Source: Schmidtea polychroa (Eukaryota). From it: a stretch of 64,000 bases of DNA. The position numbers were made by a program, and so were the translations under genes. The notes under the pieces were generated by a model. The model was not told where the DNA came from. It searched no databases and saw only the letters and a program-made list of their open reading frames with translations. This document shows positions 6,375 to 36,490 of the stretch, one piece after another; position 1 is the first letter of the stretch; every line of letters begins with the position of its first letter. The stretch spans positions 31,498,001-31,562,000 of the forward strand of contig CM097885.1 of assembly GCA_044892525.1 (NCBI GenBank), read 5' to 3'.

Positions 6375-7561
6375 AGTAGTAAGATGTGTCACCTCCAGGA
6401 CATGTCACCTCCAGGACACATATATAAGTAGGTCAAGTTAAAATTAAGTAGATCAAGTTAAAATTATGTAGGTCACGACTATATAGGTATTAAAATATGT
6501 AGGTCAAGTTACTTTAAATATATGTTACCTCCAGGACACTATATAAATAAATAAGTCAAATTAAGTAGGTCACGACTATATAGTTTATAAAAAATATGTA
6601 GGTCAAGTTATTTTTAACATGTATCCCTATAATATATACATCATTCAAAAGATATTTGAGAGTAGAGTACAATGATCATACCTTCAAAGGTGTATGGTGA
6701 ATCCCTAACCTTCAAAAGGTGCAAAACCCTCGAATTTTTTCAAACTCTATAATACATGTCATTCAAAAGGTAATTGAGATGTGAGTATGATGGTCATACA
6801 ATCAAAGGTGTATGGTGAGTCCTTCACCTTCAAAGGGTCAAAAAATTTCGAATTTTTTCAAACTTTATAATATATATACATCATTCAAAAGGTATTTGAG
6901 AGTAGAGTGTGATGGTCAAACCTTCAAAGATGTATGGTGAGTCCTTACCCTCAAGTGTCAAAAACTTTGATTTTTATTCAAACTGTAAATTGATCATTTC
7001 AACAAATCTTTCAATCCCCAAAATAAATTTCCCAACTCAAAAATTTCCCAAATTTTAAAAATTCCCAAAAACAATTTTCCCAACTCAAATTTTTTCAAAA
7101 ATTAAAAAGTCCCAAAAATGAAATTCCCCAAATTTCCCAACTCAAAATTTTTCAAATTTTAAAAAGTTTTCAAAACTATTTTCCCAAATTTTCCAACAAA
7201 ATAGTAAAAGAATGTTTTACAATTTTTTTTTTTCCTCGAATACATCAAACCAAAAATTTAACAAGGTTCGTCACACAAATCTAATTTTGAAATCAAACAA
7301 ATGAATTTAATAAAAATTAAAATCATCGACATACACAACCGCCGCCCGCTCGCCCGCCCGCCGCCCGCCGCCCGCCCCGAAGGGGCTGGGCGGTAGTTTG
7401 TAAATTTGGTTTATTTTGAATATTATTATTTGATACATAGTTTTATTATTTACAATATTCAAAGTATTAATAACAAAGGTAAAGAAATAAATGTTTATTA
7501 AATGTATATAGTATGATACTCATTAATATACATTGAACATGCTTTACATTTGCGAACATTT
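6375..7561 (+). repeat. Left TIR of Polinton-1
   Basis: Reverse complement of 21418-22559. Contains TAGGTCA repeats, three tandem units of about 120 bp (6628-6990), TTCCCAA repeats and a GC hairpin. Confidence 0.95.
6421..6606 (+). promoter_or_regulatory. Array of ROR/Rev-erb-type nuclear receptor monomer sites (AT-rich + TAGGTCA)
   Basis: Five W-rich-GTAGGTCA copies (6424, 6464, 6495, 6561, 6594) plus one TAGATCA variant; mirrored in the right TIR. Function is inferred. Confidence 0.45.
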
Positions 7562-8055
7562 GAATCATGGCATTTAGAACATACAATTACATGTCCGCAA
7601 GGTAAAAACAAAACCGATACTTGATTTTCTTTACAAATGTAACAAGTTAAATACATTTTCCTACCATCATTGAGTTTTTTCCTTAGCTTATTTTCAATCA
7701 ATTCGGATTTCGATATCCATTCATAAATCAATCTACTACTATATCCTGGTTCCAGCCTTAAATCCATACAATTCCAAAAGCATTCATTCAATGAATCATT
7801 ATCTACTATTGCTTTGTCTAAATGCATCAAATAAATCGATAACTTCAAAATGCATTCATTGTAATTAAATAAATCAATCAAATATCCAATGGAGGAATGT
7901 TTGAAAATTTCTAAAATTTTTATGGTTTCCTTTTCAGTGAGAGTATCATAATTGTTCATAAAATCTTCAACGGTGCAGTTTAAAAACTTGAATGATCTCG
8001 TGGTCATCAGTAATTTCTTAATAAATTTATGAAAATACTTATATTCTGCACACAT
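7498..8055 (-). CDS. IAP-type C3HC4 RING finger protein (putative E3 ligase)
   Basis: C-terminal CYICKENQVSVLFLPCGHVIVCSKC...CKAC; homolog at 47259..47750. Confidence 0.85.
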   Translation of the reverse strand: MCAEYKYFHKFIKKLLMTTRSFKFLNCTVEDFMNNYDTLTEKETIKILEIFKHSSIGYLIDLFNYNECILKLSIYLMHLDKAIVDNDSLNECFWNCMDLRLEPGYSSRLIYEWISKSELIENKLRKKLNDGRKMYLTCYICKENQVSVLFLPCGHVIVCSKCHDSNVRKCKACSMYINEYHTIYI

Positions 8056-8413
8056 TTATAAGAGATACATTAAAACAACTCATTTATTAAACAAGAAAAT
8101 AATTTAAAATCAATAATGGTAATTTTAAGGATTATCTTCGATAGATTTTATTGAATAATGGTTCATTAAAAAGGTCTTGAAGAGCTCTATCCAATGGTTA
8201 TATATTTGAAGATATAATGTTTGTGCACAATATAGTAAGTATTATTATTTTTATTATTATTTTTATTAACAAACTACATTCTAATAAAATACTTTTACAC
8301 ATCAAATTATTAAAAAAAAAAAAAAAAAAAACCGATAATTATAAAACGAAAAAGAGACTTTACAATAATTTCTATTTTACAAAAATTCAAACAAGTCCGA
8401 TCACAGAATTAAA

Positions 8414-11400
8414 TTAATCTTGTAGATGTTGATTGATGAGATCGGGATCTGCTCCTGATTGAATATCATTATCGTCATTATCAATGACATCAACCCCTAA
8501 ATAATGACCATATGCAAAACTAGAGTTTTTCTCTACCCAAGCTCTTTTATCATCATGATTAGTTAAAGCAATCTTTGAGTTTTTAAAGGTAAAAAGCTGA
8601 TGATTTCGGGTTCCTATTCTAGTCTGAGGTACAGAAATAACTGTGTTGTTGTTGTAACAGTCTAAATAAGATTGATGTTTTATATCTGTACCTGGTAATT
8701 TTACGCCCTTAGCTCTCATAGTAGATTTATTTCCTAAAAGACTGTAGCACTTTGGTCGCAAGAAAACCCACTCACTATATCCTACACCCTTACTCTCATC
8801 CTTAAACTTACCTATAACTGAGTCGAGTCTCCTAGAATATAAAGGATGAGAGGGATCATAATTTGAGGTGTCTAACAAGTCATCCGAAATCATCGCTGGC
8901 AAAAGAACGTCAAGCTTTACATTTTTGACCTCTAAGAAGAAACTATCGGTATCACCCGCAACTATATTTATATCACAGTTAAACTGACTCCTATATTTTG
9001 ATAATTCTATGTACTGTAATTGATACATCCTTAGTTTGGATAAATCCAGCACTGATTGTCCGATGTAGCTGGGTCTATCCAAACATATAGACTCCTTATT
9101 GAGATGTACACCAAAAAGATCATCATCAATTTTGATGGTTTTTCTAAATGATGGTTTTGATGAATATGTAATTAATTTTTCCGCGGAATTACATAGTCGT
9201 AAATTTAATCTCTTCTTAAGGTTTTCAACGGATTTACCGTACAAGCTATTATTATACAATTTGAATAAATCTCTGTACAGTTCACTGCTTGCTTCAGCTC
9301 TTAGCTGTGTATTTTTATTTATATAATTTTTAAAAATCGGTGCTTGCTTGAATTTTGTAGCTCTATGGATGTGTACAACTTTGGCACCAAGAGACAAATA
9401 AAGCTTGAGAAGCCTCCAATGAAGAACATGGTTCTTCTTTGGCCAATGCGTGAGCATCAACTTCTCAACTTTCGAACCAGGCGGGCACATTTTCTCAGGA
9501 GCAAGAGGAAAGTCATTTAAGAAATCATGAAAAATTTCTGGAATATCTATATCCACTTCTATGGTATAACCATAGGGAAGGATTTCAATGTCAGCATTCA
9601 TGCACTCAAGCAATACATCATTCAATCCATCATACACCCAAGTGAAATCAGCAAAAGGAAGATTTTGGCTAAGAGCCCAACCATACAGATTATTTATATC
9701 AATATATAATAATTCTGTATTATCCGAAGCAGCAACGTAATGTTTGTTAACAAATGTTAACCCACCACGTATTCCTCCTTCGTAAAAATTGAACATTTCC
9801 ATGTCCTGTAAAAGTTCTATAGGCTCAGTTAATGTCATAAGCGCTGAGGCCCATGACATACCCGGAATACCATAAAAGTTTAGAGGTTCTAGACCATTGT
9901 ATGCAATGGCCTTGGCACGAAATTGTTGGAAATAGTCCGCAAGGAGGAATACATCCAATTTTTGATAAGTTAACATATAGTCAGCCAATTTAGTACAACG
10001 TTGTTGAGTCCAAATAAGTTGAGCCTTAGCATACTCATCTTCAGTAACACCAGACCAAATAGGAGGCAATTCATAAGTGGTTTCAAGTACATCCAAATCA
10101 GTCGCATAATCATAAGGAAATATGGCTTTAGCATCTATTATTAACCTATCAAAAACCGACGAAGTCAAAGGAAGATCAGTTAGAGTTTTTACAGCCTTAG
10201 CCAAAGAACAATTAACAAATTGTATGCTGTCGATAAAACGAACAGCTAATTTTTTAATGTGAACAATCATCGAGATAAATTTTTCTGTGCTTGTGGGTAT
10301 TATATTCAAATTCCAAGAAGGAAAGCCATTGAGACCATATTTTAAAATATGGTGTAAGTCGTAGCCTCGTAAATTATGAAATACAATCGGCAGCTGTTTA
10401 TAAATTCTGCGAGCCATATTACATTTCCTACAGGCTGCACCGAGATAATTACCAGTAAAATGGTCATGATCTCGAACAGCAAGGGATAAAACCTTCTTGC
10501 AAAGATAGCAGTTCCTACAAGATTTGAATTGTCGTTCCTCAGCAAAAGTCATAGGTCCTAACCGTTTTTTCCCTTCAAGCTCATAATAAGGTAGGACAAT
10601 TGTGACAGCAATTTCCTCTACTTTTTTAAGAAATTGAGGTATACAATCAAGACCATAAAACTCGTAATACGATTTTCTATTGTTAAGATTATTTATTAAT
10701 AAAAGACCTGCTGAAATAGGTAAATGTATTTGATGATGTTTAACATCTTTAGGTAAAACCGATTCAAAATCGGCATAAATAACAAAGGGTGGGGTGATTC
10801 TCTTTGAATGATTTTGAAACTCTAAATATTTATTTTCGGGTAAAGTGTAAAGGGTTGTACCCGTTTGATTTTTACTGCATAGGGCCACATGTTTAGTGAA
10901 AGCATTGTCTAATCGAAAACCGTTAAGACAATGTGGGCACCATTTGCATCTTATTTGAATACTACAGTCATTATTACGATGGCAGTTCATTAAACGTGTA
11001 ATGTTGGTCACTGCGGTGTAATGATAATTATCCTTATTTTACAAGAGTAATAAATAAATTGGAGTACCGATAGTAACCGTTGATCTGTGAATTATACTTA
11101 AGTGGGGGTGTTTAAAAACATAGTCATTAGGAACCTGATCATCATCAACTATCACAGTAGGGGTATAAGCCAGAACATTTATGGCAAGATTTAAGTCTAA
11201 ATTTTTCTTTTCGAATTTAGGTATATTACACAATTTCATCGGACAATCCGTGACTTCATTGTAATTAAGAATATTTAAAAGATTTTCATATTTTGAAACT
11301 CTTTCAGGGTGGCTACCTATTTCATCTTTTTTCAAGAGCGCGAGAATACTATAAAGGAAACACTTATGATCCTTATTTTTAACATTAATAATTGCTCCTT

Positions 11401-12509
11401 TAGATTTCAAATCTGCGGGTGTACGAATGTAACTATGACCAGATAGGCGACAAATAGGAGCAAATTTAGTCAGAATGAAATCAATCTCTAAGATATTAAT
11501 TACTCTCCAGCCACTACCTAAATAGGTAAACTTTTCAATTTTTTCGTTTAACTTATTAACTCCCTCAATTAAAAAGTTATCCGAAAAGATCTCGGCGTTA
11601 TTTGAAAAGTAGTTGTCACGGATTTCCCCATCTTTTTCAAATCTTATAAGAATAGCGAATTGAATTTTGACGCTACCCATGTTATTTATTTCAGATGTTA
11701 ACTTTTCAGTGATTTTATCCGTTATTATAATTTTAATTAATTGTGAATCGGCAATATTAAATCGAATAGTTCGAATGGCGCCATTTAAATTTGATTCTAT
11801 TATCGGCTCAATCGCTAAAGATGATCCACCTATTTGATTTATAGTATTTATAGTATTATCATTATTTATATTTTCATTTATAGCATTTATAGTATCAATA
11901 TTATCATTTATAATATCATGATTTATAGTATATTTAATATTATTACATTCGTCATCACTGAGTAGAATGACTTCATTTTTAATAATTTCGTCGTCACTGA
12001 TCTCAATAACTTCAGTTTTTATAATTTTATTTTTAATTTTAGACACCCTATGTTCAGCAGGTCTTTTGTTAGATTTCTTTTTTGTGTTATTATTTAAAAT
12101 ATTTACAATTTCAATGTTATTCTTATTTATTATTTTAAACAGTTCTTGTTTATTTGTTTTGAAAGAATTTAAGTGCTGAGAATGTTGACTATAAAATTCC
12201 TTATACCTTACACTCTGGGAAGTTTTGCATATGGGGCAAATAAAAAAGTTGATGCCATTAAAAGGTTGGCGATAATATTTCTTCATATTTTTGTGGCATT
12301 TATTGTCATGACCCATAGACGAATTACAATATTTAGGATAAAATTTGCCTAATAAAAGTTAAATAATTATTTATTGAATGAAAATGTATTATTTATTTAA
12401 TAATAATAATAATAATAATAAATGTAATTTAATCTTTCATTTAAAATTTGTCTATAATATTATCAACTATAAAATAATTAGTTAATGTTAAATAATGCTA
12501 AGTTATTAA

Positions 12510-12596
<87 letters not shown>

Positions 12597-13229
12597 TACT
12601 ACTACTATTACAATTACTATTATAATTATTACTATTACAATTACTATTTTAATGATAACTGAAATAATTTACATAAAGTTATATTTACATTATATTTACA
12701 TAAAATCTATATTATTATTAAGTTATTAATTAATTAAAAACTATATATTAATAAAATGAAACATACATTTTGATTCGTTATTCGAAACTGAGTCCCCAAT
12801 AGGGATGGGAGCATTCAAATTATACGCAACGGAGGTATCCACTACTGCGGCATTTATTATTGGAAAATTCTTGTTATGAGAAACAGAAGATTCTAAAATG
12901 TTAATGGTAATACAATTTTAATTAAACTAATAAATTACCATTTTGGAATATGTTTGAAATATCTAATATGTCGTCATTTTCGGTAATTGCGGCCCAATCA
13001 CCAAAATAATTGTCTAAATAATAAAGATAATAATAATAATTAAAGTATTTATAATAATTATAAATATACCATTTCCATCATTTCCAGAACCTAATCGCCT
13101 ATTGAAGACTGACGAGTTAACGGTACGAGTTTCTAATTGTAAATTTAATTATTTAATATAAATAAATAAATAAAAATCCTTACCATTTCTCGAAAGAACC
13201 ACATTGATTTTAGTATTAATTGATGACAT
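8414..13229 (-). CDS. Protein-primed family B DNA polymerase (pPolB), spliced; one in-frame TAA at 11039-11041
   Basis: Motifs YADFES, FHNLRGYD, YIDINNLYG, KLYNNSLYGK, GDTDS, RPKCY; EndoVII-like insert CYLC..RDHDH..CRKCN. Predicted exons 13229-13184, 13132-13070, 13013-12939, 12892-12767, 12348-8414, all phase-1 GT-AG. Confidence 0.93.
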
Positions 13230-13393
13230 TTTAAAATTGTAATAAAATAATTATGATGAAATTTGTATTACAATTGTTTATAACGTGATAATATGCCTTT
13301 GTTAATCATGCACGGAGCATGCACCGTTCATGACGGACTTTGTTATTATTGTAATAATATAAAACATAATAATAATTATAAAAATAATAAAAC

Positions 13394-13437
<44 letters not shown>

Positions 13438-13488
13438 ACATAATAATAATTATAAAATAATAAAAACACATTTTTATAAAAACATTTA

Positions 13489-13892
13489 TTATTTAATAGA
13501 CATAAGCCATCCTAAACAATGTTGTCCGCACGTACGAGTTAAAGGGTGTTGATACATTGTTTTATTATATACAATAGGTTTGCCCATTGTTTGTAGTTTC
13601 GAAACCAATAAAGCAGGATAATAGAAACCCATAGGATCGAATACATGTATCTTATCTGGTTTCATATAGATTGCAATCCAATGCTCTCCGCCGAGATGAG
13701 ATGAATGGGTATTGACGATTATGGCTTGATTATTTTTCAAAAATGGTATTTTATCGAGAGGAAAAACTCCTAAAAATTCATTTCCTAATATTTGTTTTCC
13801 AATTCGATTAACCTGAACAGAACTATTTTAATAAATTAAACAGTATAAAAAACAACTTACTCCATGACAACTTTCTGTATTTCTGTATACAT
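13489..13892 (-). CDS. Adenain-like cysteine maturation protease (PRO), 38-nt intron 13823-13860
   Basis: GEHWIA, FDPMG and QHPLTRTCGQHC catalytic motifs; ATG directly follows the MCP stop; GTAAGT...TAG intron restores frame and is conserved in copy 2. Confidence 0.9.
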
Positions 13893-15116
13893 TTATACCA
13901 GAACGGTTCTATTTGCAGTAATTTGAACTTCATTTTCAAATACTCCATATATTATAACATGCACAGGTTCTGTAATAGCTTTTGCAAACTTTATATCTAA
14001 TCGTAAATTTCCATTTTGAGGTAATTGACTCTGATTCAAATCAAAATCTGGGGCCAAAACAAATGTAAAGAATGGATATTTGGTTTTGAATTCTTCAAGA
14101 GTTATGCCGCAATTCAAATTTTTATCTAAATATCCCATATTTCTAACAATACTCTGCATATATGTAGCACAGTAATTGTCACTATCGAAATCTTGAGTAT
14201 ATGTTTCTCGATAATCAGTATTTTTCGACAAAGTTAGAGATGTAACACCAAAGGTTTTGAAAATTGAGCTTGAGGCACTATATGAACCATTATATTGTGC
14301 TTCACCTTGAAATGTTACCAGAATAAAGTTTGGCATTCTTCTATCTCCAAATATTTGTTCCTTATAGAAGGAAGAAGCACCTTTGGCTATTGCAAATGAA
14401 ACAATTTCTTTTGTTTTCAGAGGATAGATTGCATGCTTAGAATTAAGACCCAACTGATGACCTGCTAATACCGACGGATCAACTCGAACTCTTCTTACTA
14501 GTAATTTTGCATCAACTAATTGACATATTGGTTGACCAGCACCACTAGTTAATGATAAAGAAGAATCGGTTCTTTTCAGTCTAATGTGTACATTGACTCC
14601 TGGAAGTAAATATTTTGGTTGATCCATAAAATCGAGTTGTAATGATGAACACATGGTGAAAATCTTTGAGCCTTTAATCCATTTTTTCCGTTCGTCATCA
14701 CTTGCTGCATAACCCATAGGAGTAAGACATGTATTTTTGGTGTCGGTATTATAATTTAAAATAGTTTCTATTATCGCCTTGTGGATATATGTATTGTTGC
14801 CACCTTCAATCTTGATATTATTAAATCCAAGAATAGCATCTTTAAAAAGTGTATGAAACAAAAAATTATTAGGTATTGTAGCATCAGCATCACCCAAAGC
14901 CTTTTTATCTTTATCTATAACCTTGATTTGAACAATCAATAAAGTATCATTCAAATCTAAATATTCTGTTTGAGAACCATTGATGTAAAATTCTACATCA
15001 TTTCTACTATCGGTAATTGAATTCATAGGAAAAACTTCCTCAAATGCCCCAAATTCTATTACAGCCTGGGGCGATGGTCTATCAAATATACATAATTCAG
15101 ATTTACCACAAATCAT
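13893..15116 (-). CDS. Major capsid protein (double jelly-roll, PY/hexon-like)
   Basis: SELCIF, VEFYING..YLDLNDT, QPKYLLPGVNVHIRLKR, GNLRLDIKFAK; size and position typical of Polinton MCP. Confidence 0.88.
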   Translation of the reverse strand: MICGKSELCIFDRPSPQAVIEFGAFEEVFPMNSITDSRNDVEFYINGSQTEYLDLNDTLLIVQIKVIDKDKKALGDADATIPNNFLFHTLFKDAILGFNNIKIEGGNNTYIHKAIIETILNYNTDTKNTCLTPMGYAASDDERKKWIKGSKIFTMCSSLQLDFMDQPKYLLPGVNVHIRLKRTDSSLSLTSGAGQPICQLVDAKLLVRRVRVDPSVLAGHQLGLNSKHAIYPLKTKEIVSFAIAKGASSFYKEQIFGDRRMPNFILVTFQGEAQYNGSYSASSSIFKTFGVTSLTLSKNTDYRETYTQDFDSDNYCATYMQSIVRNMGYLDKNLNCGITLEEFKTKYPFFTFVLAPDFDLNQSQLPQNGNLRLDIKFAKAITEPVHVIIYGVFENEVQITANRTVLV

Positions 15117-15475
15117 TTTGCAAATATAGTTCCATGTCCTTTCATTCGTTTGTTTATACGTGATATTCCATGTCTTTTACGTTTTGGAGCTGGACCTGGA
15201 GGCGTATCTTTTTGAAACATACCTGCAACCCCTGGTAAAACTTTCCCTAATTCAGCTAAAGCATTTGTTTTTAGAGATGGTAATATTTTCTGTTCATTCA
15301 TAATAACATCTTTTGCAGTTTTCATACCAAAACTACCAATACGTTTAAGAATAGGCAATGCAAATCTACCAATTGTTCTCAACCATCCCGATCCGTACTG
15401 TTTACCAATAAAATATGGTAATTCACCGCCAGATTGGCTATCACTATACATACTAATAATATCAGAATTAGCCAT
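15113..15475 (-). CDS. Small basic core/membrane-active virion protein (QxGG/QxGxG motifs plus amphipathic helix)
   Basis: QSGG and QYGSG followed by WLRTIGRFALPILKRIG; basic C-terminus; lies between mCP and MCP; conserved at 38113..38487. Confidence 0.65.
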   Translation of the reverse strand: MANSDIISMYSDSQSGGELPYFIGKQYGSGWLRTIGRFALPILKRIGSFGMKTAKDVIMNEQKILPSLKTNALAELGKVLPGVAGMFQKDTPPGPAPKRKRHGISRINKRMKGHGTIFAK

Positions 15476-16535
15476 CTACTTTACGAAAATGTAATGTCAA
15501 ATGAGTTTTTGAACCTTTTGGAAAGTTTATAAGTTTTCCACTATCATCACGAATATTTATTTCTATATTGTTTATACATGAACTTGCTATTGGTAAATAC
15601 ATGGGATTATCGATATTTATATTGACAACTTCATCATGTTCATATTTTCCAATCCATACCGATTTCAAAAGAGGAACACTGGAATCACCAACAATTATGG
15701 GCTCGATAATGTTAGTATATATGAACATTTGTTGATGATGTTCTAGTATTCTTGGTTTGCGTATACCAGTCGATTTTTCTCTATATATTTGCTTATCTAA
15801 TCCAAGTGAATTTGCCAAATTTTTATCAAATGTAACTTCGCAAATATCCTCATTCAAACTGAAGGTAAACATCAAATCTTTCACAATTTCCAAATTTTTA
15901 AATATGTGTGAACAATTGAACTTTAAATATTTAAGTAATACATCAAGTTTATCAAAATATAATTCATCAGCAAAGATGAATGATTCTTCAACTTCATCGT
16001 TATACGACACAGATATTTTGATTTCTTCTTTCACTATACTGTTTGCTTCAAATAGATTAAAACGTAATAAATACTCGGTCTCCATAACAATATTTTTCAG
16101 CTTATTGCAACCCATTCGTTTGGCATCTTCAATAGTTTCGAATGTTATTGTAAATGGTTTAAAATCACAACTGATATTTAATCCATCCTTGTAAAATATA
16201 TAGCAATGCGAATCTAATATTTGGTTCGGAATATGATATGTTTTATCATAATTACTAATAATAAAGATACCGCTACATGTTTTCACAATATTCCTTTTGA
16301 AATCAATCTTACATTGACTATAAAATGGGAATGTGTTGTACACGAATGTAAAATCTTGCAGTGCAACTTCCCAGTCACCATTTAAAGAAATCGGATTCTG
16401 GAGATTGACCATAAATTTACTGCCTTGATTGTCTGGATGAATTAATGGGCAACTATTGCTCGGTAAAATAGTATAAAAATTCACTTTACTAGGTCCTTTG
16501 CTGATATCCATGACGGGTTTTGATAACCATGCCAT
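15468..16535 (-). CDS. Minor capsid protein (penton, PX)
   Basis: N-terminal FYTILPSNS..L.GDWEVAL and C-terminal FIYTNIIEP..VGD..VPLLK..YLP..IEINIRDDSG..LTLHFRK. Confidence 0.88.
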   Translation of the reverse strand: MAWLSKPVMDISKGPSKVNFYTILPSNSCPLIHPDNQGSKFMVNLQNPISLNGDWEVALQDFTFVYNTFPFYSQCKIDFKRNIVKTCSGIFIISNYDKTYHIPNQILDSHCYIFYKDGLNISCDFKPFTITFETIEDAKRMGCNKLKNIVMETEYLLRFNLFEANSIVKEEIKISVSYNDEVEESFIFADELYFDKLDVLLKYLKFNCSHIFKNLEIVKDLMFTFSLNEDICEVTFDKNLANSLGLDKQIYREKSTGIRKPRILEHHQQMFIYTNIIEPIIVGDSSVPLLKSVWIGKYEHDEVVNINIDNPMYLPIASSCINNIEINIRDDSGKLINFPKGSKTHLTLHFRKVDG

Positions 16536-17110
16536 TTGACATAGTATTGTTTATCCTTGCCGACCTTTTTAGTTTTCAATATTTTTTGAATTCTAAATAC
16601 CTTTGGAGGAGGAATGACTTGTAATTCCTGCTCATAAAATTTCCCTTGTACAATATTATTATCACTGTCTTTGATGACATACATTACAGGATTCTGTTTA
16701 GTATTTATTTTTGAAATTACAAAGACTTCATCATTCCAATTTGTATCAAAATTTTTAATAAATGGTGATGCACTAATTTTACTAATTCTAACATGATCAC
16801 CGACTTTATATTTAGGTTTTGCAATTTTTACAGATTTCTTAGAATAGAATGTTTTTGATGTAATATCAACCGGTCTTAATCCATTCAGTCCTCGGTGTGA
16901 TGAATGATTATAACTTGTTATTATTTTCGGTAAAGCATTTACCCATTTTTTATTACCTTGATGCACGAACAATTTCTTTAATCTATCTCTCAATGTTCGA
17001 TTAAATCTTTCAACATGGGCAGCTTTGTATTGAGAATGTACCGAGTAGTGATTTATTTTCAGTTTATCGAGGACTTGCTTAACTTTGCTATTGTAGAATT
17101 CTTTACCTAA

Positions 17111-17172
<62 letters not shown>

Positions 17173-17575
17173 TAATAATAATAATACCCAAATCTGTTTG
17201 CAAGTTATTAGGATGTCCATCTTTAAATAAAATATTAATTGCCTTGGACATTTCATCTGCAGATTTTGCCTTGACTGGTATTGCTTGTGCAAACCTGCTG
17301 TATACATTAATACATGTTAAAATATATTTATTCCCATTGTTAATTTTCGAATACGGTATCATCTCCATCAAATCCATTTGCCATAAATCGTCAATACCAA
17401 ATGTTTTATAGGCTCTTGTTGGAAATCTTTTCCGCATTGGTTTGTTCAAACTGTACGCAAGCTGATCTGATAACCACTTCTGGGTTTCTTTTTTCGAATT
17501 CGGAACTCTTTTCTTTAATTTTGCCACTCCACCGAAACCGGCTTCGTCTTCTGGGTTCGTCCAAATCTTCTCCAT
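16481..17575 (-). CDS. Retroviral-like (rve) integrase with C-terminal chromodomain; (ATT)n intron 17107-17187
   Basis: WQMDL, QTDLG|KEF and VERFNRTL (DDE triad); chromodomain YYVKWHGY..SWI. The poly-Ile tract is a GT..TTTTAG intron. Confidence 0.93.
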
Positions 17576-17633
17576 TACAGCAAGAAGATTTAAAATTAAA
17601 ATTTAAATTAGGTAATGAAGGATTAGCACCCAT
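17406..17633 (-). CDS. Candidate overprinted, N-myristoylated small protein overlapping the integrase 5' end
   Basis: Starts MGANPS..SSCC, ACAATGG context 3 nt after the upstream stop; open at the same length in copy 2 (35995..36222). Confidence 0.5.
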   Translation of the reverse strand: MGANPSLPNLNFNFKSSCCNGEDLDEPRRRSRFRWSGKIKEKSSEFEKRNPEVVIRSACVQFEQTNAEKISNKSL

Positions 17634-17636
17634 TGT

Positions 17637-18170
17637 TTATGATTGATTTCCTACAACTCCACCTAATAATGATAATGCCAGAGGTATCAATGCACCAATA
17701 AATCCACCTTGTTGTTTATATATAATTTTCCTCATTTGCTTACGATTTTTATTATTTACTAATGATAACAAAGGTTTCCTATGTTTGCTCAATAAATGCT
17801 TTTTTGATTTACTGATTTTAATTTTGCCTTTGACTACTTTAAGTATAATATTGAGTAAATCATCGACAACAAAATTTGGGAATGATTGCAATATATTCAT
17901 TCTTTTCATACTCGGGGCCTTTAACAATGCATTAAAAAATGGAAAACTGCGATGATTTTTAATTACTTTTTTACCGGCTTTACGGGTTTTACGGGTTTCA
18001 CGTTTAGGTTTAGGATTTTTCGAAATAAGATTCATTGCAGAGAAATTTTCAGTTACAAGTTTTTTAGATGGTGTATAACTAGTTGTTGGTGGAACCTTTT
18101 GAACTTTAATACTCTTTTTAATACTTTTTCTTAATTTCCTAATATTTTTCACCCTTGCTTTTAGAAACAT
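17637..18170 (-). CDS. Lys/Arg-rich core-like protein with C-terminal QQGG and hydrophobic tail
   Basis: Very basic; ends QQGGFIGALIPLALSLLGG; near-identical copy at 35458..35991. Confidence 0.7.
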   Translation of the reverse strand: MFLKARVKNIRKLRKSIKKSIKVQKVPPTTSYTPSKKLVTENFSAMNLISKNPKPKRETRKTRKAGKKVIKNHRSFPFFNALLKAPSMKRMNILQSFPNFVVDDLLNIILKVVKGKIKISKSKKHLLSKHRKPLLSLVNNKNRKQMRKIIYKQQGGFIGALIPLALSLLGGVVGNQS

Positions 18171-18188
18171 TATTATTCATAGAGGTTT

Positions 18189-18815
18189 TCAACTTTGTTT
18201 ATAAACCATGGCACCTTTTGGGTTGAAAATATCTGTTTTTACTCGTAAATCATCGGGACATTGTTGTGTGAAATCAAGAAATATATATCCATGAGGTATT
18301 TTTGTAGCATCTTGAAATGCACTGATAAGAAAATTACGATTGTTAGGGTATGCTTGACGTGCAAGAAAATCAATCACTGTTGCATCTCTAGGATTCTTGA
18401 AAATAACTAAATATTGTACATTTAAATTACGTGTTCGATGTGCACCACCTTGATGAAATAGATTTTGAGTTATAAAAATAACAGTTACACCAACGTGTCT
18501 ACTGATTTTGGTAAATAAATTATTGAAATTCTTTTCTTTATTAGCTTCTTGATACAAATCATCAATAATTATGACATCCCCCTTCTTTAGTCTACTGGAC
18601 CAATTTTTATCAAATCCCTCTACTATTTTCATATTTTTCAATTTACAGAAACTTGATTGAGTCAATCCGTGTTCTTGATCAGCACCTCGATGCCAATACA
18701 TTTTGTTAAATTTTGATTCAAATAAATGTGATTTTAGTAATTTGCAAACAAACAAAGTTTTGCCGCTACCACTTGGTCCGACTATTTGATATACAGCATC
18801 ATTTCTTAGTTCCAT
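18189..18815 (-). CDS. FtsK/HerA (A32-like) genome-packaging ATPase
   Basis: Walker A GPSGSGKT, Walker B IIIDD, SRH..VTVIFITQNLF, FKNPRD, PHGYIFLD. Confidence 0.93.
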   Translation of the reverse strand: MELRNDAVYQIVGPSGSGKTLFVCKLLKSHLFESKFNKMYWHRGADQEHGLTQSSFCKLKNMKIVEGFDKNWSSRLKKGDVIIIDDLYQEANKEKNFNNLFTKISRHVGVTVIFITQNLFHQGGAHRTRNLNVQYLVIFKNPRDATVIDFLARQAYPNNRNFLISAFQDATKIPHGYIFLDFTQQCPDDLRVKTDIFNPKGAMVYKQS

Positions 18816-18931
18816 TTTTAATATTTATTTAAAAATTAATTTTGTTTATATCGTAAAGAATAAATTGATTTAATTACTCTATAATATAACATATATATAT
18901 ATATACTTGATTTTTTAAATATTCAGTAGAA

Positions 18932-19444
18932 ATGTTGACAAATATTAATTATAGAGGTCGTGTGTCTTTGGAAACTGTTGGTATGATGAATTTCCCCAAG
19001 TGTAAACCACAACAATATGTTGACAAAACTGGAAAATATACTATTATATTTTTCAAAAATGGTAAATGTCGTATAATGGGTTGTAAGAAGCCTATCGAAT
19101 TCGAGAATTTGCAATATAATATCAAAGATATTCAAGTTCAAAGTCTTACTATAGCTACCAAGGTTGAACAATCTATTAATTTGAATAATTTAGCAAAGTT
19201 ATTAGATGGAGATTGTATATATGAGCCTGAATTATTTCCCGCTCTGCGTTATACAAAATATAATCCACTATGTGTTAATATATTTTCGAGTGGTAAAATA
19301 GTTGTACTAGGTATTAAAAATTTAGATTTTCATACTATTGTTGAAGGAATTATAAACGATGTAAAGGATTTGATTGGATCTTTAACAATTTCTTCAAATA
19401 TAAGTAACGAGGATTTGCTTGAATATTTATTCAACAATGATTGA
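18932..19444 (+). CDS. TATA-binding-protein-like protein (viral TBP)
   Basis: Two TBP repeats: IIFFKNGKCRIMGCK, and INLNNLA..YEPELFPALRY..VNIFSSGKIVVLG. Confidence 0.85.
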   Translation: MLTNINYRGRVSLETVGMMNFPKCKPQQYVDKTGKYTIIFFKNGKCRIMGCKKPIEFENLQYNIKDIQVQSLTIATKVEQSINLNNLAKLLDGDCIYEPELFPALRYTKYNPLCVNIFSSGKIVVLGIKNLDFHTIVEGIINDVKDLIGSLTISSNISNEDLLEYLFNND

Positions 19445-19805
19445 ACATGAAGGTAACTGTTTTTATTTTAAATTTACTGATTTTTGTTTAGAAACTATAC
19501 TAAAAATTTTGATTGATAAAATTGAAGATTTTTATCCGAATTTGAACAATTCCTTAATGTATTGTGCTCCAGAAGTTGTGTTTTACAAAATTTATGAAAT
19601 AACTGGAATAAATGTAATAGATTTAATTCATATGGATCATGCTACGATTACATGTTATACCGATGATGTTGAAAATTGTGATTTTTGTAAAAATAATATG
19701 CAGAATACTTGTGGGGATGATAGTTGTACATGTTTTGTAAATCTACAGAAACGAGAAATAATTCATGCATTACTTGTGGAATTGCGAAAAAATGTATTGT
19801 TGTAA
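19437..19805 (+). CDS. Orphan accessory protein with Cys-rich C-terminus; 39-nt intron 19453-19491
   Basis: Homologous to 33789..34175 (I..I..FYP/YYP..PE..IY/IF..T); the same short first exon and intron occur in both. Confidence 0.6.
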   Translation: MIEHEGNCFYFKFTDFCLETILKILIDKIEDFYPNLNNSLMYCAPEVVFYKIYEITGINVIDLIHMDHATITCYTDDVENCDFCKNNMQNTCGDDSCTCFVNLQKREIIHALLVELRKNVLL

Positions 19806-20007
19806 TAAAATATAATTATATTTGTTTTGTGATAACCTTAATTAACCTATAATATTTCTTTGTGTACAATAAATCATTTCAGACTTTGTTATTTAGCATA
19901 AAATGAACTAGTTGATCACGTTTTGATCATGCCTGTCACTTGAAACTTGTTTACAATGAAATTAGTATAAAATATCTGGTTCAAATTATTAAATATTATA
20001 ACTACAA

Positions 20008-20602
20008 ATGGATAATCAAATTACAGGTTTGTTGTCGTTTACACATATTCCATTTAGTAGTTTTTTAATCTAGGAGTTTTGAAGAGAAAAAATGCAGATG
20101 CCGCTCAGGAATTCGGAAAAAGGAAATTTAAAGAAGCGACATTATCCACGGAAACCTTGGTCAATGTTCGAGTGGATACAAAAAAGCCAGTCGAATTCAT
20201 GCAATACAAACTAAATTATTTGTATTGTCCAATTTCCTATACATTTAAGGTAAGTTTCTATAAATTATTTTGGATTTTATTATTATTATTATTTATTGTT
20301 AGGAACCAGTAACTCTGGAAAAATGTTTCTACAATGTGAGACTTTCCAAAATCAAGTTTCACGACAAGATGCTATTGGGACAATTATTTCAGAGGATCAA
20401 TGAAAATATTGAATTTGATGATGAAGATATGTTCATTAGAAACGATTTGGATATGATTCCCAATGGTGGTAAGATGAGCAAAATAACCTGCATGGTTACC
20501 ATATTAATTCAAGGGTATAATGTAAGCAGAGACCGAATCAAACCAATTTGGAAAATTATAAAAGCCGAAGATAAGTTTGAAGAGGAACATTGTTCATGTT
20601 AA
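20008..20602 (+). CDS. Three-exon accessory protein, candidate ssDNA-binding (OB-fold) protein
   Basis: Introns 20027-20073 and 20250-20302 join ORFs 20079 and 20336 in frame; homologous to 33022..33450 (TI.IQGY..PIWKI). Confidence 0.6.
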
Positions 20603-20674
20603 ATTTATTTAATACATCTTTATTAGTGTTTTGGTGTTTTTAAATCATTGAAAATAACTAAAGTTTCAAATTTA

Positions 20675-21060
20675 TTAATCTTCAATACAATCTCTTTTCA
20701 TTATATTTTCAACAATATGATCAATACAATTAGTAGAAACAATAGATTCATCTTCTTTAGATTCATTTGGTAATTTATCTGTTGTAGAATTCTCAATACA
20801 TGACTTAAGTTCTTCACTAGGCAAATCAGTATATTCATCTTCTTGCTGGGAAATATTTTCAGATTCATATGACATATCATCTTCATTAATTTCATCGTCT
20901 GAATACGGCCATTTTAATTTCTCTGGAACATTCATAAATTCTCTAACTTTTACATTAGATATTTCCTCTAATTTTTCAATCAAAAAGTTGATTATATATG
21001 CTAAATAAAAAAAAAAAGAATTAATAAACATAAAATTCATATTTTACCTTTTTCCGACAT
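20675..21060 (-). CDS. Small acidic accessory protein; 47-nt intron 21001-21047
   Basis: MSEK|AYIINFLIEKLEEIS...CIDHIVENIMK; homolog at 32534..32889 with the same intron position. Confidence 0.65.
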
Positions 21061-21417
21061 GGTTGAAAATAATTAAAATGAAAAAATAATTATGTTTATA
21101 CTATTATTCAAAAGCAACAAGATGATCGATAGATAGATTATAAGAAAATTAGATATTTCAACACGATACATATAATAAAAAGACAAGCAAACTTGCAATG
21201 ATATTTAACGTTTCAGTTTTTACATTTTTTTTTTAATATTTATTTCAATTATTTCGACAACACAAAAAGTGTCAATTTTTTTACTAATTAATTTTCAGCC
21301 TAACCTACAACTTTTCACAAAAATCCAAAAAAAAAAAAAAAAAAAAAATGAGACCTTTTTAATGAACCATTATTCAATATAATCTATCGAAGGTAATCCT
21401 TAAAATTCCAAATTTAA

Positions 21418-22559
21418 AATGTTCGCAAATGTAAAGCATGTTCAATGTATATTAATGAGTATCATAATATAAACATTTATTTCTTTACCTTTGTTATTAA
21501 TACTTTGAATATTGTAAATAATAAAACTATGTATCAAATAATAATATTCAAAATAAACCAAATTTACAAACTACCGCCCAGCCCCTTCGGGGCGGGCGGC
21601 GGGCGGCGGTTGTGTATGTCGATGATTTTAATTTTTATTAAATTCATTTGTTTGATTTCAAAATTAGATTTGTGTGACGAACCTTGTTAAATTTTTGGTT
21701 TGATGTATTCGAGGAAAAAAAAAAATTGTAAAACATTCTTTTACTATTTAGTTGGAAAATTTGGGAAAATAGTTTTGAAAACTTTTTAAAATTTGAAAAA
21801 TTTTGAGTTGGGAAATTTGGGGAATTTCATTTTTGGGACTTTTTAATTTTTGAAAAAATTTGAGTTGGGAAAATTGTTTTTGGGAATTTTTAAAATTTGG
21901 GAAATTTTTGAGTTGGGAAATTTATTTTGGGGATTGAAAGATTTGTTGAAATGATCAATTTACAGTTTGAATAAAAATCAAAGTTTTTGACACTTGAGGG
22001 TAAGGACTCACCATACATCTTTGAAGGTTTGACCATCACACTCTACTCTCAAATACCTTTTGAATGATGTATATATATTATAAAGTTTGAAAAAATTCGA
22101 AATTTTTTGACCCTTTGAAGGTGAAGGACTCACCATACACCTTTGATTGTATGACCATCATACTCACATCTCAATTACCTTTTGAATGACATGTATTATA
22201 GAGTTTGAAAAAATTCGAGGGTTTTGCACCTTTTGAAGGTTAGGGATTCACCATACACCTTTGAAGGTATGATCATTGTACTCTACTCTCAAATATCTTT
22301 TGAATGATGTATATATTATAGGGATACATGTTAAAAATAACTTGACCTACATATTTTTTATAAACTATATAGTCGTGACCTACTTAATTTGACTTATTTA
22401 TTTATATAGTGTCCTGGAGGTAACATATATTTAAAGTAACTTGACCTACATATTTTAATACCTATATAGTCGTGACCTACATAATTTTAACTTGATCTAC
22501 TTAATTTTAACTTGACCTACTTATATATATGTGTCCTGGAGGTGACACATCTTACTACT
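21418..22559 (-). repeat. Right TIR of Polinton-1
   Basis: Reverse complement of 6375-7561 with few indels. Confidence 0.95.
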
Positions 22560-30281: not shown

Positions 30282-31385
<1,104 letters not shown>

Positions 31386-31953
31386 GTACTACTATTCGCA
31401 GCAATATTGTTAGAAATTGGTAACGTTGAATTGATTTTCAGATATTCTATTGATCCTTTGATTGTTTGAATTTCTGTTAATAATAATTCAATCTTTTTTA
31501 ATAAATAATCATGCTTCTTATCAATAATTTTCATATTCTTTTTATTTTCAACAATAGAGTTATTGAAAACCTCAATATGATCAATTAATTTAATTTTTAT
31601 ATTTTGTATATATTCAAATGATAGTTCATAACTGTTTTCTAAATTCTCCAATCTTTGAGATATTCTTTTTCCTGGATGCTTTGACCATTTTGGTTTGTCG
31701 AGAATATATAAAATATCCATCAACTTGGCTGTATTCGGACAAACACATATTGATTTATTAAAAGACTCCACTGTTATTGTTGTATTGTGTGAGCACACAC
31801 TCGTTATAATAATTAGCAATATGAATATAGTTTTCATGGTGTATCAAATCAAAACCTTTCTTTTACATTAATGCCTATCAACCAATCAAAATCATACAGT
31901 ATTAGTATAAATAAAACATCATATTTTAAATTATTGTAAAAATATCTCATTTT

Positions 31954-32456
31954 ATGGAAAATCTTTTAAGCGAACTCGTCAACAAGAATATTATGGAAAG
32001 CCTAAGTTTCCTGGTCGATCGGACCGAAAAGATTATAGAAGGAAATCACATTGATTATGAGGACGTGCTCAATTCCGATTCCCTCGAAACGAAGAAATTC
32101 TATTTTAATAGGATTTTTAACTGTCTATGCGACGAGGAGATGAAGTGGACCCGAATATTAGTAGGGTTCGCTTATATGAAGATCATAATGGAAAGAAGTC
32201 TATGGGACTCTGAACATTATTATCAGTGGTCTCAAGAAGTAATACTTTTATAATCTATATTTTATTAATATTTATTTTCTAGATAATCAAGTCAAAGTTT
32301 CAGCCATGGATTGAAGCCAATGGCGGATGGGGCGTGCTGAATCAACTCGCCAGAAATGCAAAGGAAATAGATCAGCAGAAAATCAAATTTAAAAACTATT
32401 TAAAACTTGCAACAGTTGTTGCTATTTTGTATGTTTTATGTCGGTTTTTTAAATAA
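31954..32456 (+). CDS. Bcl-2 family protein (viral Bcl-2), 152 aa; 44-nt intron 32239-32282
   Basis: BH1-like LCDEEMKWTRILVGFAY in exon 1; exon 2 gives BH2 WIEANGGW and the tail anchor LATVVAILYVLCRFFK. Confidence 0.85.
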
Positions 32457-32533
32457 AAATTAATATAGTTATTTTGTTTGATTTTTAAATAAAATTTTAA
32501 TTAAATTTACAAACACTAATTAACTAAGATTTA

Positions 32534-32889
32534 TTAATTAACACATTCGCAGTCGTCATCTCCACATTTCATTATTTTTTCAACGACATGATCAATACAA
32601 TCATTCGTAATATTATCTTTAGATTCATCTTTAGGTTCCTCTATAGGTTCCTCTATAGGTTCATCTATAGGTTCATAGATTTCCTCTTGAGTTTCTTCCT
32701 CATCATCAAATCCTGTATCTTGACTCTCAACTAACCAGCCGATATTTAAGGCATTTGTAATAGATAATATGTCCTCAATTTTCACACCAGATATTTCTGC
32801 TAACTCTTCCAACAAAAAGTTGATTAAAAATTCTAAATAATAAATAATTCGGTAATTAATAAATCATGTTAACCTTTTTCTGCAGTCAT
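32534..32889 (-). CDS. Small acidic accessory protein; 41-nt intron 32833-32873
   Basis: Homolog of 20675..21060 (INFL.E.L.EIS.VK, CIDH.VE.IMK). Confidence 0.65.
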
Positions 32890-33021
32890 TTTCATCACTT
32901 TAAAACTATATTATAAGTTTGTTTATAGATTTTCTTTGTTAAATTTGCATGTCATTTGCATTTATGTTGCAATTAATAAAGAGAAAAACAAATCTGACTA
33001 ATACATTTATTAAATATAACA

Positions 33022-33450
33022 TTAAAATATTTGTGAAAGTCTAGCAGACATAATTTTCCAAATAGGAGAATATACATCATTATTATCAACTTTATATCCC
33101 TGGATTGCAATTGTTATATACCAATTTTCATTTTCTTTGAAACTAATTTCATCAAAAGCATCATAAAATCTTGCATATCTATTGTTGAACCACGCATGTT
33201 GATTACACGATAGATTCGAATCTATCCGTTTAAAAACATCATCAATAGTTTTGACATCAATCATTGAAAGCGTGCCGGATAAGAATTCAAATTTAGTTGG
33301 AATTAGCTTGACTGGTGCAACCAATTTCATATTGATTTCTTCTTTCAAAAAATACATTTTGTAGTTGTGGAACATTTGAACTGGTTGTACCATTTGAACT
33401 GGTTGTACCATTTCTTTAGGTTTTTCGGTGCTTGAAATTTTCTTAGTCAT
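33022..33450 (-). CDS. Accessory protein, candidate SSB; intronless homolog of 20008..20602
   Basis: PVQMFHNYKMYFL, VFKRIDSNL and ITIAIQGY..PIWKI align with the copy-1 protein. Confidence 0.6.
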   Translation of the reverse strand: MTKKISSTEKPKEMVQPVQMVQPVQMFHNYKMYFLKEEINMKLVAPVKLIPTKFEFLSGTLSMIDVKTIDDVFKRIDSNLSCNQHAWFNNRYARFYDAFDEISFKENENWYITIAIQGYKVDNNDVYSPIWKIMSARLSQIF

Positions 33451-33635
33451 CGTGAATAATGAATAAATTTAAATGTTACAGGGTTTTTATACCTTTGACT
33501 CATGCCTATCAACCAATCAGATTATAGCATGTCTTTGTTTAAATTGCATTCAAAATGCATTGATGTTGCATTGTCACATGTTCTATTATTTTTATTAATG
33601 TTTTATTATTATTAATGTTTTATTATTTCTATTTC

Positions 33636-33674
<39 letters not shown>

Positions 33675-33788
33675 TTTATTATTAATGTTTTATTATTAAT
33701 GTTTTATTATTTCTATTATTACTATTATTATTATGATTACTATTATTATTTCAAATATAAAAAAGATAAAACACAATAAAAAATTCAT

Positions 33789-34175
33789 TTATTGGTAACC
33801 TAAATCTACAATCCGGGAGTAGTGAAACCTTCTCAGAGTTTTCACTAACTCCCATTTGACACATCGCCGATATCGATCGGCACAGCATGAGCATCCGATG
33901 ATGCATTGGTACCCCGGCTCCATTTACTTCATTGTTCTGTTGATCTTAACATCCCATAAAAATTGATGAAAGACCTCCATTATTCTAATTTGCGTGGCAT
34001 AAAAAATCAAATCTGGTATGATTTCCGGTTCCCGATCTTTGATTACTTCAGCAATTTGCGGATAATAATATTTTATCCTATTAATCATGACTTCTAGATA
34101 TTTTTCTAAAATAATAAATATAAAAAATGTGAAAATAAAAATTTTAAATTTACCATAATCATCTATTTCTTTCAT
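33789..34175 (-). pseudogene. Orphan Cys-rich accessory gene, homolog of 19437..19805, with an in-frame TAA at 33924-33926
   Basis: The frame continues after the stop as MEPGYQCIIGCSCCAD..KWELVKTL to a stop at 33789. Confidence 0.5.
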
Positions 34176-34276
34176 GAGATTCGCGGCGCTCGGAATTTTT
34201 ACATAGTGAAATAAATGAATTCTAAACAAAAAACCGTTTGTTTAAATCAATCAATAACCAATTAGAAATTAACCAA

Positions 34277-34714
34277 TTAGAAATCGACCAATGAAATTAT
34301 CTCATTTCGAACCTTGTCAACAAATTCTCTATACTCCAAATTTCTCAACCCTAACATGACAACCTTTCCACTAGCAAACACGTTGACACATATAGGGTTA
34401 TATTTTAATAGTCTTAGTGCCGGAAACAATTCCGGTTCAAATATACAATCACATTTTTTCGACATGTTATATAGATTGATACTATGTCCCATATCCATAG
34501 TAACGGTAATTGATTGGATTATAATATTATTTATTCGATATTGTAATTTATTAATATCCAAAGGTTTCTTACATCCCATGATTCTGCATTTACCAGTCTT
34601 GAAAAATATTATCGGATATTTCCCGCTTCTATCGATAATTTGCTGGGGTTTCCCTGGTGGGAACCTCATATTCGATACATCAAAATTTCCTCGATAATTT
34701 ATATTTGCTAACAT
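34277..34714 (-). CDS. TATA-binding-protein-like protein (viral TBP)
   Basis: IIFFKTGKCRIMGCK; FEPELFPALRL..VNVFASGKVVMLG. Confidence 0.85.
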   Translation of the reverse strand: MLANINYRGNFDVSNMRFPPGKPQQIIDRSGKYPIIFFKTGKCRIMGCKKPLDINKLQYRINNIIIQSITVTMDMGHSINLYNMSKKCDCIFEPELFPALRLLKYNPICVNVFASGKVVMLGLRNLEYREFVDKVRNEIISLVDF

Positions 34715-34813
34715 TATTAAATCATTTATGAAAATTAGTCTTTATATATAAATTGAGCACGAGTTCATTAAATCATCGAATATAAACAAATACACATTTA
34801 TAAAATCTTTGAA

Positions 34814-35439
34814 ATGGAATTAAGAAATGATGCAGTATACCAAATCGTTGGTCCGAGTGGTAGTGGAAAAACATTATTTGTTTGTAAATTACTAAAATCA
34901 GATTTATTCAAATCAAAATTCAACAGGATTTATTGGCATAGGGGTGCTGATGAAGAACATGGATTAACTCAATCAAGTTTCTGTAAATTAAAAAACATGA
35001 AAATAGTAAAGGGATTCGATAAAAACTGGTCCAGCCGATTAAAGAAAGGTGATGTCATTATTATCGATGATTTGTATCAAGAAGCTAATAAAGAAAAAGA
35101 TTTTAATAATTTATTTACAAAGATCAGCAGACATGTCGGTGTAACAGTTATTTTCATAACACAAAATCTATTTCATCAAGGTGGGCACATCGAACACGTA
35201 ATTTAAATGTACAATATTTAGTCATTTTCAAGAATCCTAGAGATGCAACAGTGATTGATTTTCTTGCACGTCAAGCATACCCTAACAATCGTAATTTTCT
35301 TATCAGTGCATTTCAAGATGCTACAAAAATACCTCATGGATATATATTTCTTGATTTCACACAACAATGTCCCGATGATTTACGAGTAAAAACAGATATT
35401 TTCAACCCAAAAGGTGCCATGGTTTATAAACAAAGTTGA
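34814..35439 (+). pseudogene. Packaging ATPase with a 1-nt frameshift near 35185
   Basis: ORFs 34814..35206 and 35251..35439 together match 18189..18815. Confidence 0.9.
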
Positions 35440-35457
35440 AAACCTCTATGAATAATA

Positions 35458-35991: not shown

Positions 35992-35994
35992 ACA

Positions 35995-36222
35995 ATGGGT
36001 GCTAATCCTTCATTGCCCGACATTAAATTTAATTTTAAATCTTCTTGTTGTAATGGAGAAGATTTGGACGAACCCAGAAGACGAAGCCGGTTTCGGTGGA
36101 GTGGCAAAATTAAACAAAAGAGTTCCGAATTCGAAAAAAGAAACCCAGAAGTGGTTATCAGATCAGCTTGCGTACAGTTTGAACAAACCAATGCGGAAAA
36201 GATTTCCAACAAGAGCGTATAA
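35995..36222 (+). CDS. Candidate overprinted myristoylated protein
   Basis: MGANPS..CC; same length as the copy-1 ORF. Confidence 0.5.
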   Translation: MGANPSLPDIKFNFKSSCCNGEDLDEPRRRSRFRWSGKIKQKSSEFEKRNPEVVIRSACVQFEQTNAEKISNKSV

Positions 36223-36440
36223 AACATTTGGTATTGACGATTTATGGCAAATGGATTTGATGGAGATGATACCATATTCGAAAATTAACAATGGGAATAA
36301 ATATATTTTAACATGTATTAATGTATACAGCAGGTTTGCACGAGCAATACCGGTCAAGGCAAAATCTGCAGAAGAAATGTCCAAGGCAATTAATATTTTA
36401 TTTAAAGATGGACATCCTAATAACTTGCAAACAGATTTAG

Positions 36441-36490
<50 letters not shown>

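Follow-up and report, generated by a model that had tools for sequence, protein, structure and literature searches.

Phase-1 micro-exons are predicted to open the pPolB gene of two Maverick/Polinton elements

The window analysed here, a stretch of 64,000 nucleotides of Schmidtea polychroa DNA, holds two Maverick/Polinton elements:

6375..22559, no strand: element 1, Maverick/Polinton, ends AGTAGT...ACTACT, target duplication AATTTA
30282..49106, no strand: element 2, Maverick/Polinton, ends AGTAGA...TCTACT, target duplication TTCGTC

Both were recognized as Mavericks/Polintons by long terminal inverted repeats with AG...CT ends and by a 6-bp target duplication flanking each element (AATTTA for element 1 and TTCGTC for element 2). 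The inverted repeats of element 1 have arms of 945 nt that are 99% alike, which indicates that this element is young. By Pfam its Maverick gene set is complete for pPolB, a retroviral-type integrase with chromodomain (PF00665, E 3.2e-5, below the curated cut-off), a packaging ATPase (PF04665, E 6.3e-7) and an adenovirus-type protease (PF00770, E 7.2e-7); a 427-codon frame at 13893-15176 of the same element has no match in Pfam. Both elements also encode a short TBP-like protein (18911-19444, plus strand, and 34277-34741, minus strand; PF00352, E 3.6e-17 in element 1), whose gene stands head to head with the ATPase gene in both, and a RING-finger gene that adjoins pPolB (7498-8055, minus strand, and 47202-47750, plus strand; PF13920, E 4.8e-10 in element 1). 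Outside both elements lies an uninterrupted 1078-codon adenylate/guanylate cyclase frame (51557-54793, minus strand; PF00211, E 4.5e-96).

At the DNA level the two pPolB genes share 73.9% identity across 3209 nt, and both are damaged downstream of the micro-exons described below. The bulk of each gene is a long exon, which starts at 12348 on the minus strand in element 1 and comprises the following parts:

12137..12348, minus strand: zinc-binding module at the start of the long exon, element 1, C-x5..7-C-x4/5-H-xn-C then C-P-x-C...H-x2-H
11951..12013, minus strand: pair of SIM-like stretches within the disordered long-exon linker
11465..11803, minus strand: predicted terminal-protein domain (PRD1-like, little-finger fold), from a structure model
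11042..11404, minus strand: first part of a likely vOTU domain with the invariant Cys329, assigned from position and motif
11039..11041, minus strand: in-frame stop that breaks element 1 pPolB
8414..11038, minus strand: exonuclease and polymerase part of element 1 pPolB (PF03175, E 2.4e-23)
42460..46209, plus strand: element 2 long exon, which contains the zinc module and pPolB; breaks near 42690, at 43379-43381 and near 45870

Upstream of the long exon, each gene can be read as a chain of very short exons:

13184..13229, minus strand: element 1 pPolB exon 1, 46 nt, with the ATG
13133..13183, minus strand: element 1 intron 1, 51 nt, GT-AG, phase 1
13070..13132, minus strand: element 1 exon 2, 63 nt, without counterpart in element 2
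13014..13069, minus strand: element 1 intron 2, 56 nt
12939..13013, minus strand: element 1 exon 3, 75 nt, acidic, with a D-W-x-x-I motif, homologous to element 2 exon 2
12893..12938, minus strand: element 1 intron 3, 46 nt
12767..12892, minus strand: element 1 exon 4, 126 nt, ending in the base that completes the zinc module's first Cys codon
12349..12766, minus strand: element 1 intron 4, 418 nt, containing a TAA microsatellite
40683..40737, plus strand: element 2 exon 1, 55 nt
40786..40848, plus strand: element 2 exon 2, 63 nt, with a D-W-x-x-V motif
40898..40969, plus strand: element 2 exon 3, 72 nt, with a SIM-like stretch, duplicate of exon 4
41016..41102, plus strand: element 2 exon 4, 87 nt, with a SIM-like stretch
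41150..41296, plus strand: element 2 exon 5, 147 nt, Asp or Glu at 17 of 48 residues, whose last base completes the first Cys codon
41297..42459, plus strand: element 2 intron 5, 1163 nt, with repeats

The initial annotation had given element 1 exons of 46, 63, 75 and 126 nt separated by introns of 51, 56, 46 and 418 nt, and recomputation returned the same sizes. For element 2 it had given five exons with introns of 48, 49, 46, 47 and about 1160 nt, which we measure as 48, 49, 46, 47 and 1163 nt, and its description of GT-AG boundaries and phase 1 throughout is accurate for 9/9 introns. All nine have a GT donor, a T-rich 3' end and an AG acceptor, and their removal leaves the frame open, with no stop codon at the junction codons of either element. 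The short introns have a GC content of 6-15%, against 25-41% for the exons. Every internal exon (7/7 across both elements) is divisible by three, so that the frame would be kept on skipping. A palindrome-rich repeat (families D12 and D16) lies inside element 2 intron 5, at 41799-42217, and again downstream of pPolB, at 46688-46874.

We scanned both strands of the whole window with a chain finder that looks for an ATG with three short, AT-rich GT-AG introns behind it and an open frame. The only hits were the two pPolB chains, and no chain arose when either region was shuffled (0/1000 with dinucleotide shuffling and 0/1000 with shuffling of 25-nt blocks); the filters of the finder were fixed after the data had been seen, so the shuffles show the order of the effect and not an exact probability.

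The strongest argument, still an indirect one, comes from the zinc module. We built a search profile from the two modules, starting after the last junction, and ran it against 1.84 billion proteins, which gave 40 hits. The complete first half of the module was matched in 25 of these, amounting to 30 modules, while one further module lay too near the record start and 14 records fell outside the pattern. In 30/30 complete modules of these relatives a Cys stands 5-7 residues before the next Cys, an arrangement expected by chance at about 0.16 per module, with the proviso that the hits are mutually related. At this position the unspliced DNA gives Gly in both elements and the predicted splice gives Cys in both. 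Moreover, only the donor of the last micro-exon yields Cys at the junction, the remaining donors yielding Gly or Ser; the last micro-exon is hence not skippable, as the junction Cys would be lost. This junction Cys is the best evidence for the predicted splicing. The ten codons that follow the acceptor, which in element 1 lie before the first in-frame Met, are identical between the elements at 8, 9 and 2 of 10 first, second and third positions, respectively, and by this pattern they are conserved as protein, with changes mostly at third positions. The last acceptor occupies the same codon in both lineages, which share the leader layout at 74% identity in pPolB DNA. We conclude that the pPolB start is, to judge from these signals, real and very likely spliced.

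Sequencing runs added little in either direction. On 12650-13350, runs X1-X3, which are RNA by guess, gave AT-rich noise only and no joint, and run X4 gave two joints, neither of them GT-AG, with the intron 4 acceptor lying outside the region; we read these four runs as no evidence either way. A diverged copy in run X4 has 4 substitutions and 2 one-base insertions listed in intron 3, none at the GT or AG, and the two exon 3 changes listed are both synonymous, a weak comparison that draws on one run and on 6/15 differing letters listed. None of the 40 profile hits has this arm, and their gene calls probably ignore introns, so that some may hide leaders. A search for DNA of relatives gave no match in viral contigs (3/3 scans) or the phage collection, and the genome contigs gave 2 loci, neither informative.

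Both genes are preceded by shared motifs:

13276..13304, minus strand: 11-mer TAACAAAGGCA and TATAAAC box of element 1, putative promoter, with the box lying 53 nt upstream of the exon 1 start codon
40439..40604, plus strand: two 11-mer copies and TATAAAC box of element 2, with the box lying 85 nt upstream of the exon 1 start codon

The 11-mer occurs only three times in the window, each time upstream of a pPolB start (13294-13304 on the minus strand and 40439-40464 on the plus strand), and it contains what we take to be an HMG-box (TCF/Sox-like) site. In both elements the first ATG downstream of a TATAAAC box is the exon 1 ATG; TATAAAC itself is hardly enriched in the elements, which hold 23/36 sites in 55% of the bases. 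The same box also precedes several other element genes.

The micro-exons had been placed in a terminal-protein/regulatory N-terminus, and the terminal-protein part of this initial annotation did not hold. We modelled the first 435 residues of the long exon from six sequences (mean pLDDT 58) and obtained the zinc module at about residues 14-60, then a linker modelled with low confidence (67-178) and then an alpha/beta domain (182-294), which fits the terminal-protein fold of Krupovic et al. (PMC11161782, as far as the accessible text describes it). The best solved-structure matches of the model are mostly Y-family polymerases and weak (best E 8.6e-3), a resemblance predicted for the terminal protein in the same source (PMC11161782), and the best viral fold match is a protein of a Drosophila-associated adintovirus (E 1.5e-13). 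We therefore rejected the micro-exons as the seat of a fold with a four-stranded sheet and two helices: the predicted terminal-protein-like fold follows the zinc module and the linker, some 180 residues downstream. The zinc module has no Pfam family below E 0.1; word-based protein searches with it returned no match, and Atlas matches were all under 0.9. An undescribed two-site zinc module of this kind is found at the N-terminus of many pPolBs (P0048-P0084), either as a single copy or in up to three tandem copies. Shortly after the module, 11/37 related records end in a tail resembling a translated phase-1 donor, and there is an indirect hint that the module may be an exon in further lineages.

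How the micro-exons of the two elements relate to one another was assessed by peptide and nucleotide shuffling. Element 1 exon 3 and element 2 exon 2 align with a peptide score of 57 that 0/2000 shuffles equalled, and the zinc-module exons of the two elements are likewise alike (0/2000). No significant likeness was found between the first exons (807/2000) or between the last micro-exons at full length (148/2000), for which the ‘ES’ match before the last junction amounts to two residues only. The alignment of the two peptides reported earlier thus stands for the exon 3/exon 2 pair and fails for the last micro-exons as wholes. Each boundary of the shared exon (75 versus 63 nt) is shifted by two codons with the phase retained; its codon-position identity is weakly biased (11, 14 and 11 of 18 at positions 1, 2 and 3), and it retains W-x-x-V/I, T-E-x-D and N-I-F next to introns that cannot be aligned. 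Within element 2, the tandem duplication proposed for exons 3 and 4 was borne out (0/2000 shuffles), and the introns upstream of them are near-copies too: introns 2, 3 and 4 resemble each other with 0/1000 shuffles for each of the 3 pairs. The unit duplicated in element 2 is thus an exon plus its upstream intron. Modular gain, as had been suggested, agrees with this tandemly duplicated intron-plus-exon unit and with element 1 exon 2, which lacks a counterpart in element 2. From these comparisons the arm of this Maverick clade's pPolB appears to grow by exon duplication, and uniform phase 1 would follow if new exons formed by duplicating existing intron-exon units, with no skipping required.

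Together the micro-exons add about 103 residues in element 1 and 141 in element 2 ahead of the long exon. This arm has a low hydrophobic pattern, is strongly acidic in element 2 and is likely to be disordered or flexible. SUMO-interacting motifs (SIMs) have a short V/I/L core with an acidic flank. By our own pattern, SIM-like stretches occur in element 2 exons 3 and 4 and in the linkers, and structured parts of relatives match the pattern too; one relative (P0004) repeats such stretches within one frame. The shared exon carries D-W-x-x-V/I in an acidic context in both elements, a motif that presumably resembles the ATG8 LIR motif. It is also similar to the acidic strings that bind the TFIIH p62 PH domain (PMC10345426, accessible excerpts). 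Motifs of these two classes place an aromatic residue three positions ahead of a Val or other hydrophobic residue within disordered acidic sequence. Short docking-type motifs arise easily in acidic sequence, and the ‘regulatory’ role given to the micro-exons in the initial annotation is one that we infer from such motifs. A Met within 8 residues of the first Cys starts 15/25 relatives and many relatives are without the arm, so the arm is likely an add-on.

Several other readings of the upstream region deserve weight. Translation might start at an internal Met of the long exon, with everything upstream being decayed AT-rich sequence or a separate tiny gene; in-frame Met codons do lie within the zinc module of both elements and several relatives begin at a comparable Met. 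We consider this very improbable, given that the chain appears in 0/1000 shuffles, that conservation reaches upstream of the internal Met codons and that the junction creates the invariant Cys in both copies. Still less credible, indeed close to negligible, is that the introns are introners or host DNA inserted after the copies had integrated, for which one could cite the introners reported in eupolintoviral elements of dinoflagellates (PMC12166617, excerpts) and the near-identity of three element 2 introns. These three are adjacent, however, and were duplicated together with exon starts, while the other 18/21 intron pairs are no better than 14/1000 shuffles; moreover, two lineages share the codon position of the last acceptor, and the element 1 copy is young. 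A search for an introner family, that is, for dispersed near-identical introns, yielded within the window only those three co-duplicated neighbours among the 7 short introns compared, and this candidate was rejected.

If the exons are spliced, their sequence may still matter little. It is conceivable, though on balance we think it rather unlikely, that the arm is near-neutral, so that only the start codon and the junction Cys count and the remainder drifts: one micro-exon alone is clearly shared between the elements, exon number and boundaries vary, and many relatives do without the arm altogether. Against such drift, the shared exon has kept its W-x-x-V/I, T-E-x-D and N-I-F residues beside introns that have become unalignable, and SIM-like stretches recur in the linker and in P0004. 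Alternatively, the symmetric internal exons might act as a splicing switch, being skipped or kept to give polymerase isoforms with varying numbers of docking motifs. That 7/7 internal exons are multiples of three, that element 2 intron 1 can be retained in frame without a stop and that the duplicated exons bear SIM-like stretches would all suit a switch. Introns as short as these (46-56 nt) are as a rule spliced by intron definition, a mode that makes exon skipping less likely, and without the last micro-exon the Cys would be lost; since duplication of intron-exon units accounts for the uniform phase without any skipping, we regard a switch as distinctly improbable. The reading that we favour, and hold with considerable confidence, is that pPolB of this clade is a spliced gene, in which the host spliceosome would attach 4-5 phase-1 micro-exons to the long polymerase exon.

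In the corresponding mechanism, host RNA polymerase II would start near the shared upstream motifs, and the host spliceosome would join the micro-exons to the long exon, adding a flexible arm of about 100-140 residues. Splicing would be constitutive at least for the last micro-exon, and the last junction would supply the first Cys of the zinc module. The arm may have been added later to an ancestor beginning at a Met just before the zinc module, and its acidic and SIM-like stretches could dock host nuclear proteins. Krupovic et al. proposed vOTU cleavage behind the terminal protein (PMC11161782, accessible text); if vOTU cuts there, the arm and the zinc module would remain attached to the genome ends. 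A much more far-reaching version, which we think improbable, would make the arm a splice-built docking platform: exon duplication would equip the arm, held covalently at the DNA ends by the terminal protein, with SUMO-binding and with TFIIH- or ATG8-type motifs, the element would thereby recruit host nuclear machinery to its ends and tune this by exon gain or skipping, and the zinc module would be a mobile phase-1 exon across a wide, unannotated group of intron-bearing Mavericks.

Introns are unexpected in this place. The core genes of vertebrate Mavericks are said to have no introns, which matches Kapitonov and Jurka (PMC8097293), and the same is said of nematode Mavericks, where introns are confined to cargo (bioRxiv 10.1101/2022.07.12.499685), as far as the accessible parts of both sources go. 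Intronless core genes, a usual rather than a defining Maverick trait, are not what we predict for the two elements. In the accessible text of the literature on introns in Polinton core genes we found no description of a spliced pPolB leader, and we found no spliced pPolB in the accessible portions of PMC8502044, PMC8363768 or the nematode pPolB preprint. Otherwise the elements resemble Alpha adintovirus-type Mavericks/Polintons in element ends, target duplication, gene set and a terminal-protein-like fold followed by a likely vOTU (PMC11161782 and PMC8502044, in excerpt). The pPolB layout described for Mavericks/Polintons in these excerpts runs from terminal protein through vOTU and exonuclease to palm (Krupovic et al. 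2024, PMC11161782; Starrett et al. 2021, PMC8502044). Unlike the reported Mavericks, the elements here have 4-5 pPolB leader introns and an extra arm and zinc module before the terminal protein.

Comparable features occur separately in other systems. The mRNAs for the adenovirus E2B polymerase and pTP take their start codon from a tiny upstream exon. The likeness to E2B lies in a protein-primed polymerase whose start codon comes from such an exon; the adenovirus case differs in that about three residues are added over a long intron and the terminal protein is separate, whereas here a chain of short introns delivers 100-140 residues to a fused terminal protein-polymerase. In animal genes, class 1-1 exons are tandemly duplicated with the flanking intron. 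There such phase-1 exon duplication involves folded extracellular domains, in contrast to the short motifs of a viral-type replication protein seen here. Dinoflagellate eupolintoviral elements share with ours spliceosomal introns inside Polinton-like elements; their introners are described as mobile, mostly post-integration and mostly outside coding regions (PMC12166617, excerpts), whereas the introns here look inherited and would be needed to build the protein. Cryptophyte elements, in turn, are reported to carry group I introns (PMC12220804, accessible text). The adintovirus ‘Oncoid’ genes, as presented in the accessible sections of PMC8502044, likewise combine short linear motifs with adjacent paired-Cys zinc motifs and lie upstream of PolB, but the micro-exons here are without LxCxE and are in frame with pPolB instead of forming a separate gene, and the CR1-like stretch has Ile where the ‘Oncoid’ consensus has Leu or Met.

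If the genes are spliced as predicted, the novelty lies in a Maverick clade with a polymerase that needs host splicing. Splice dependence would tie the elements to nuclear host transcription, as in adenoviruses, and these are thought to derive from Polintons (PMC11161782, accessible text). The undescribed zinc module and the motif arm suggest where this protein, whose terminal part is predicted to remain on the genome ends, may contact the host. There is also a practical side: the accessible text of PMC8097293 has surveys counting Maverick copies as intact only with uninterrupted ORFs, a criterion that would class intron-bearing clades as decayed and truncate their pPolB N-termini.

Further candidate introns were seen in other genes of the two elements. 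The integrase genes contain inserts bounded by GT-AG, in phase 1 and with a TAT microsatellite (17107-17187, minus strand, and 36441-36494, plus strand); these inserts, of 81 and 54 nt, are in frame, stop-free and at the same place in the catalytic region of both elements. The protease gene of both elements apparently opens with just 5 nt of coding exon before a short phase-2 intron (13823-13860, minus strand, and about 39727-39765, plus strand). The corresponding positions of these integrase and protease inserts in the two elements speak for the spliced reading of pPolB. A Bcl-2-like gene of element 2 (31930-32414, plus strand) is split by a 44-nt GT-AG intron at 32239-32282, and its halves match consecutive parts of PF00452, both below the cut-off (E 0.005 and 0.22). 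A candidate intron at 47153-47201, before the element 2 RING gene, was rejected for want of a consistent frame. Finally, a scan of metagenome contigs provided three loci with distant Mavericks (L001-L003). Their pPolB opens directly at a finger, with no leader seen, and all three have a phase-0 GT-AG intron at the same place in pPolB motif A (68 nt at L001 6409-6476, 80 nt at L002 8158-8237 and 65 nt at L003 4550-4614).
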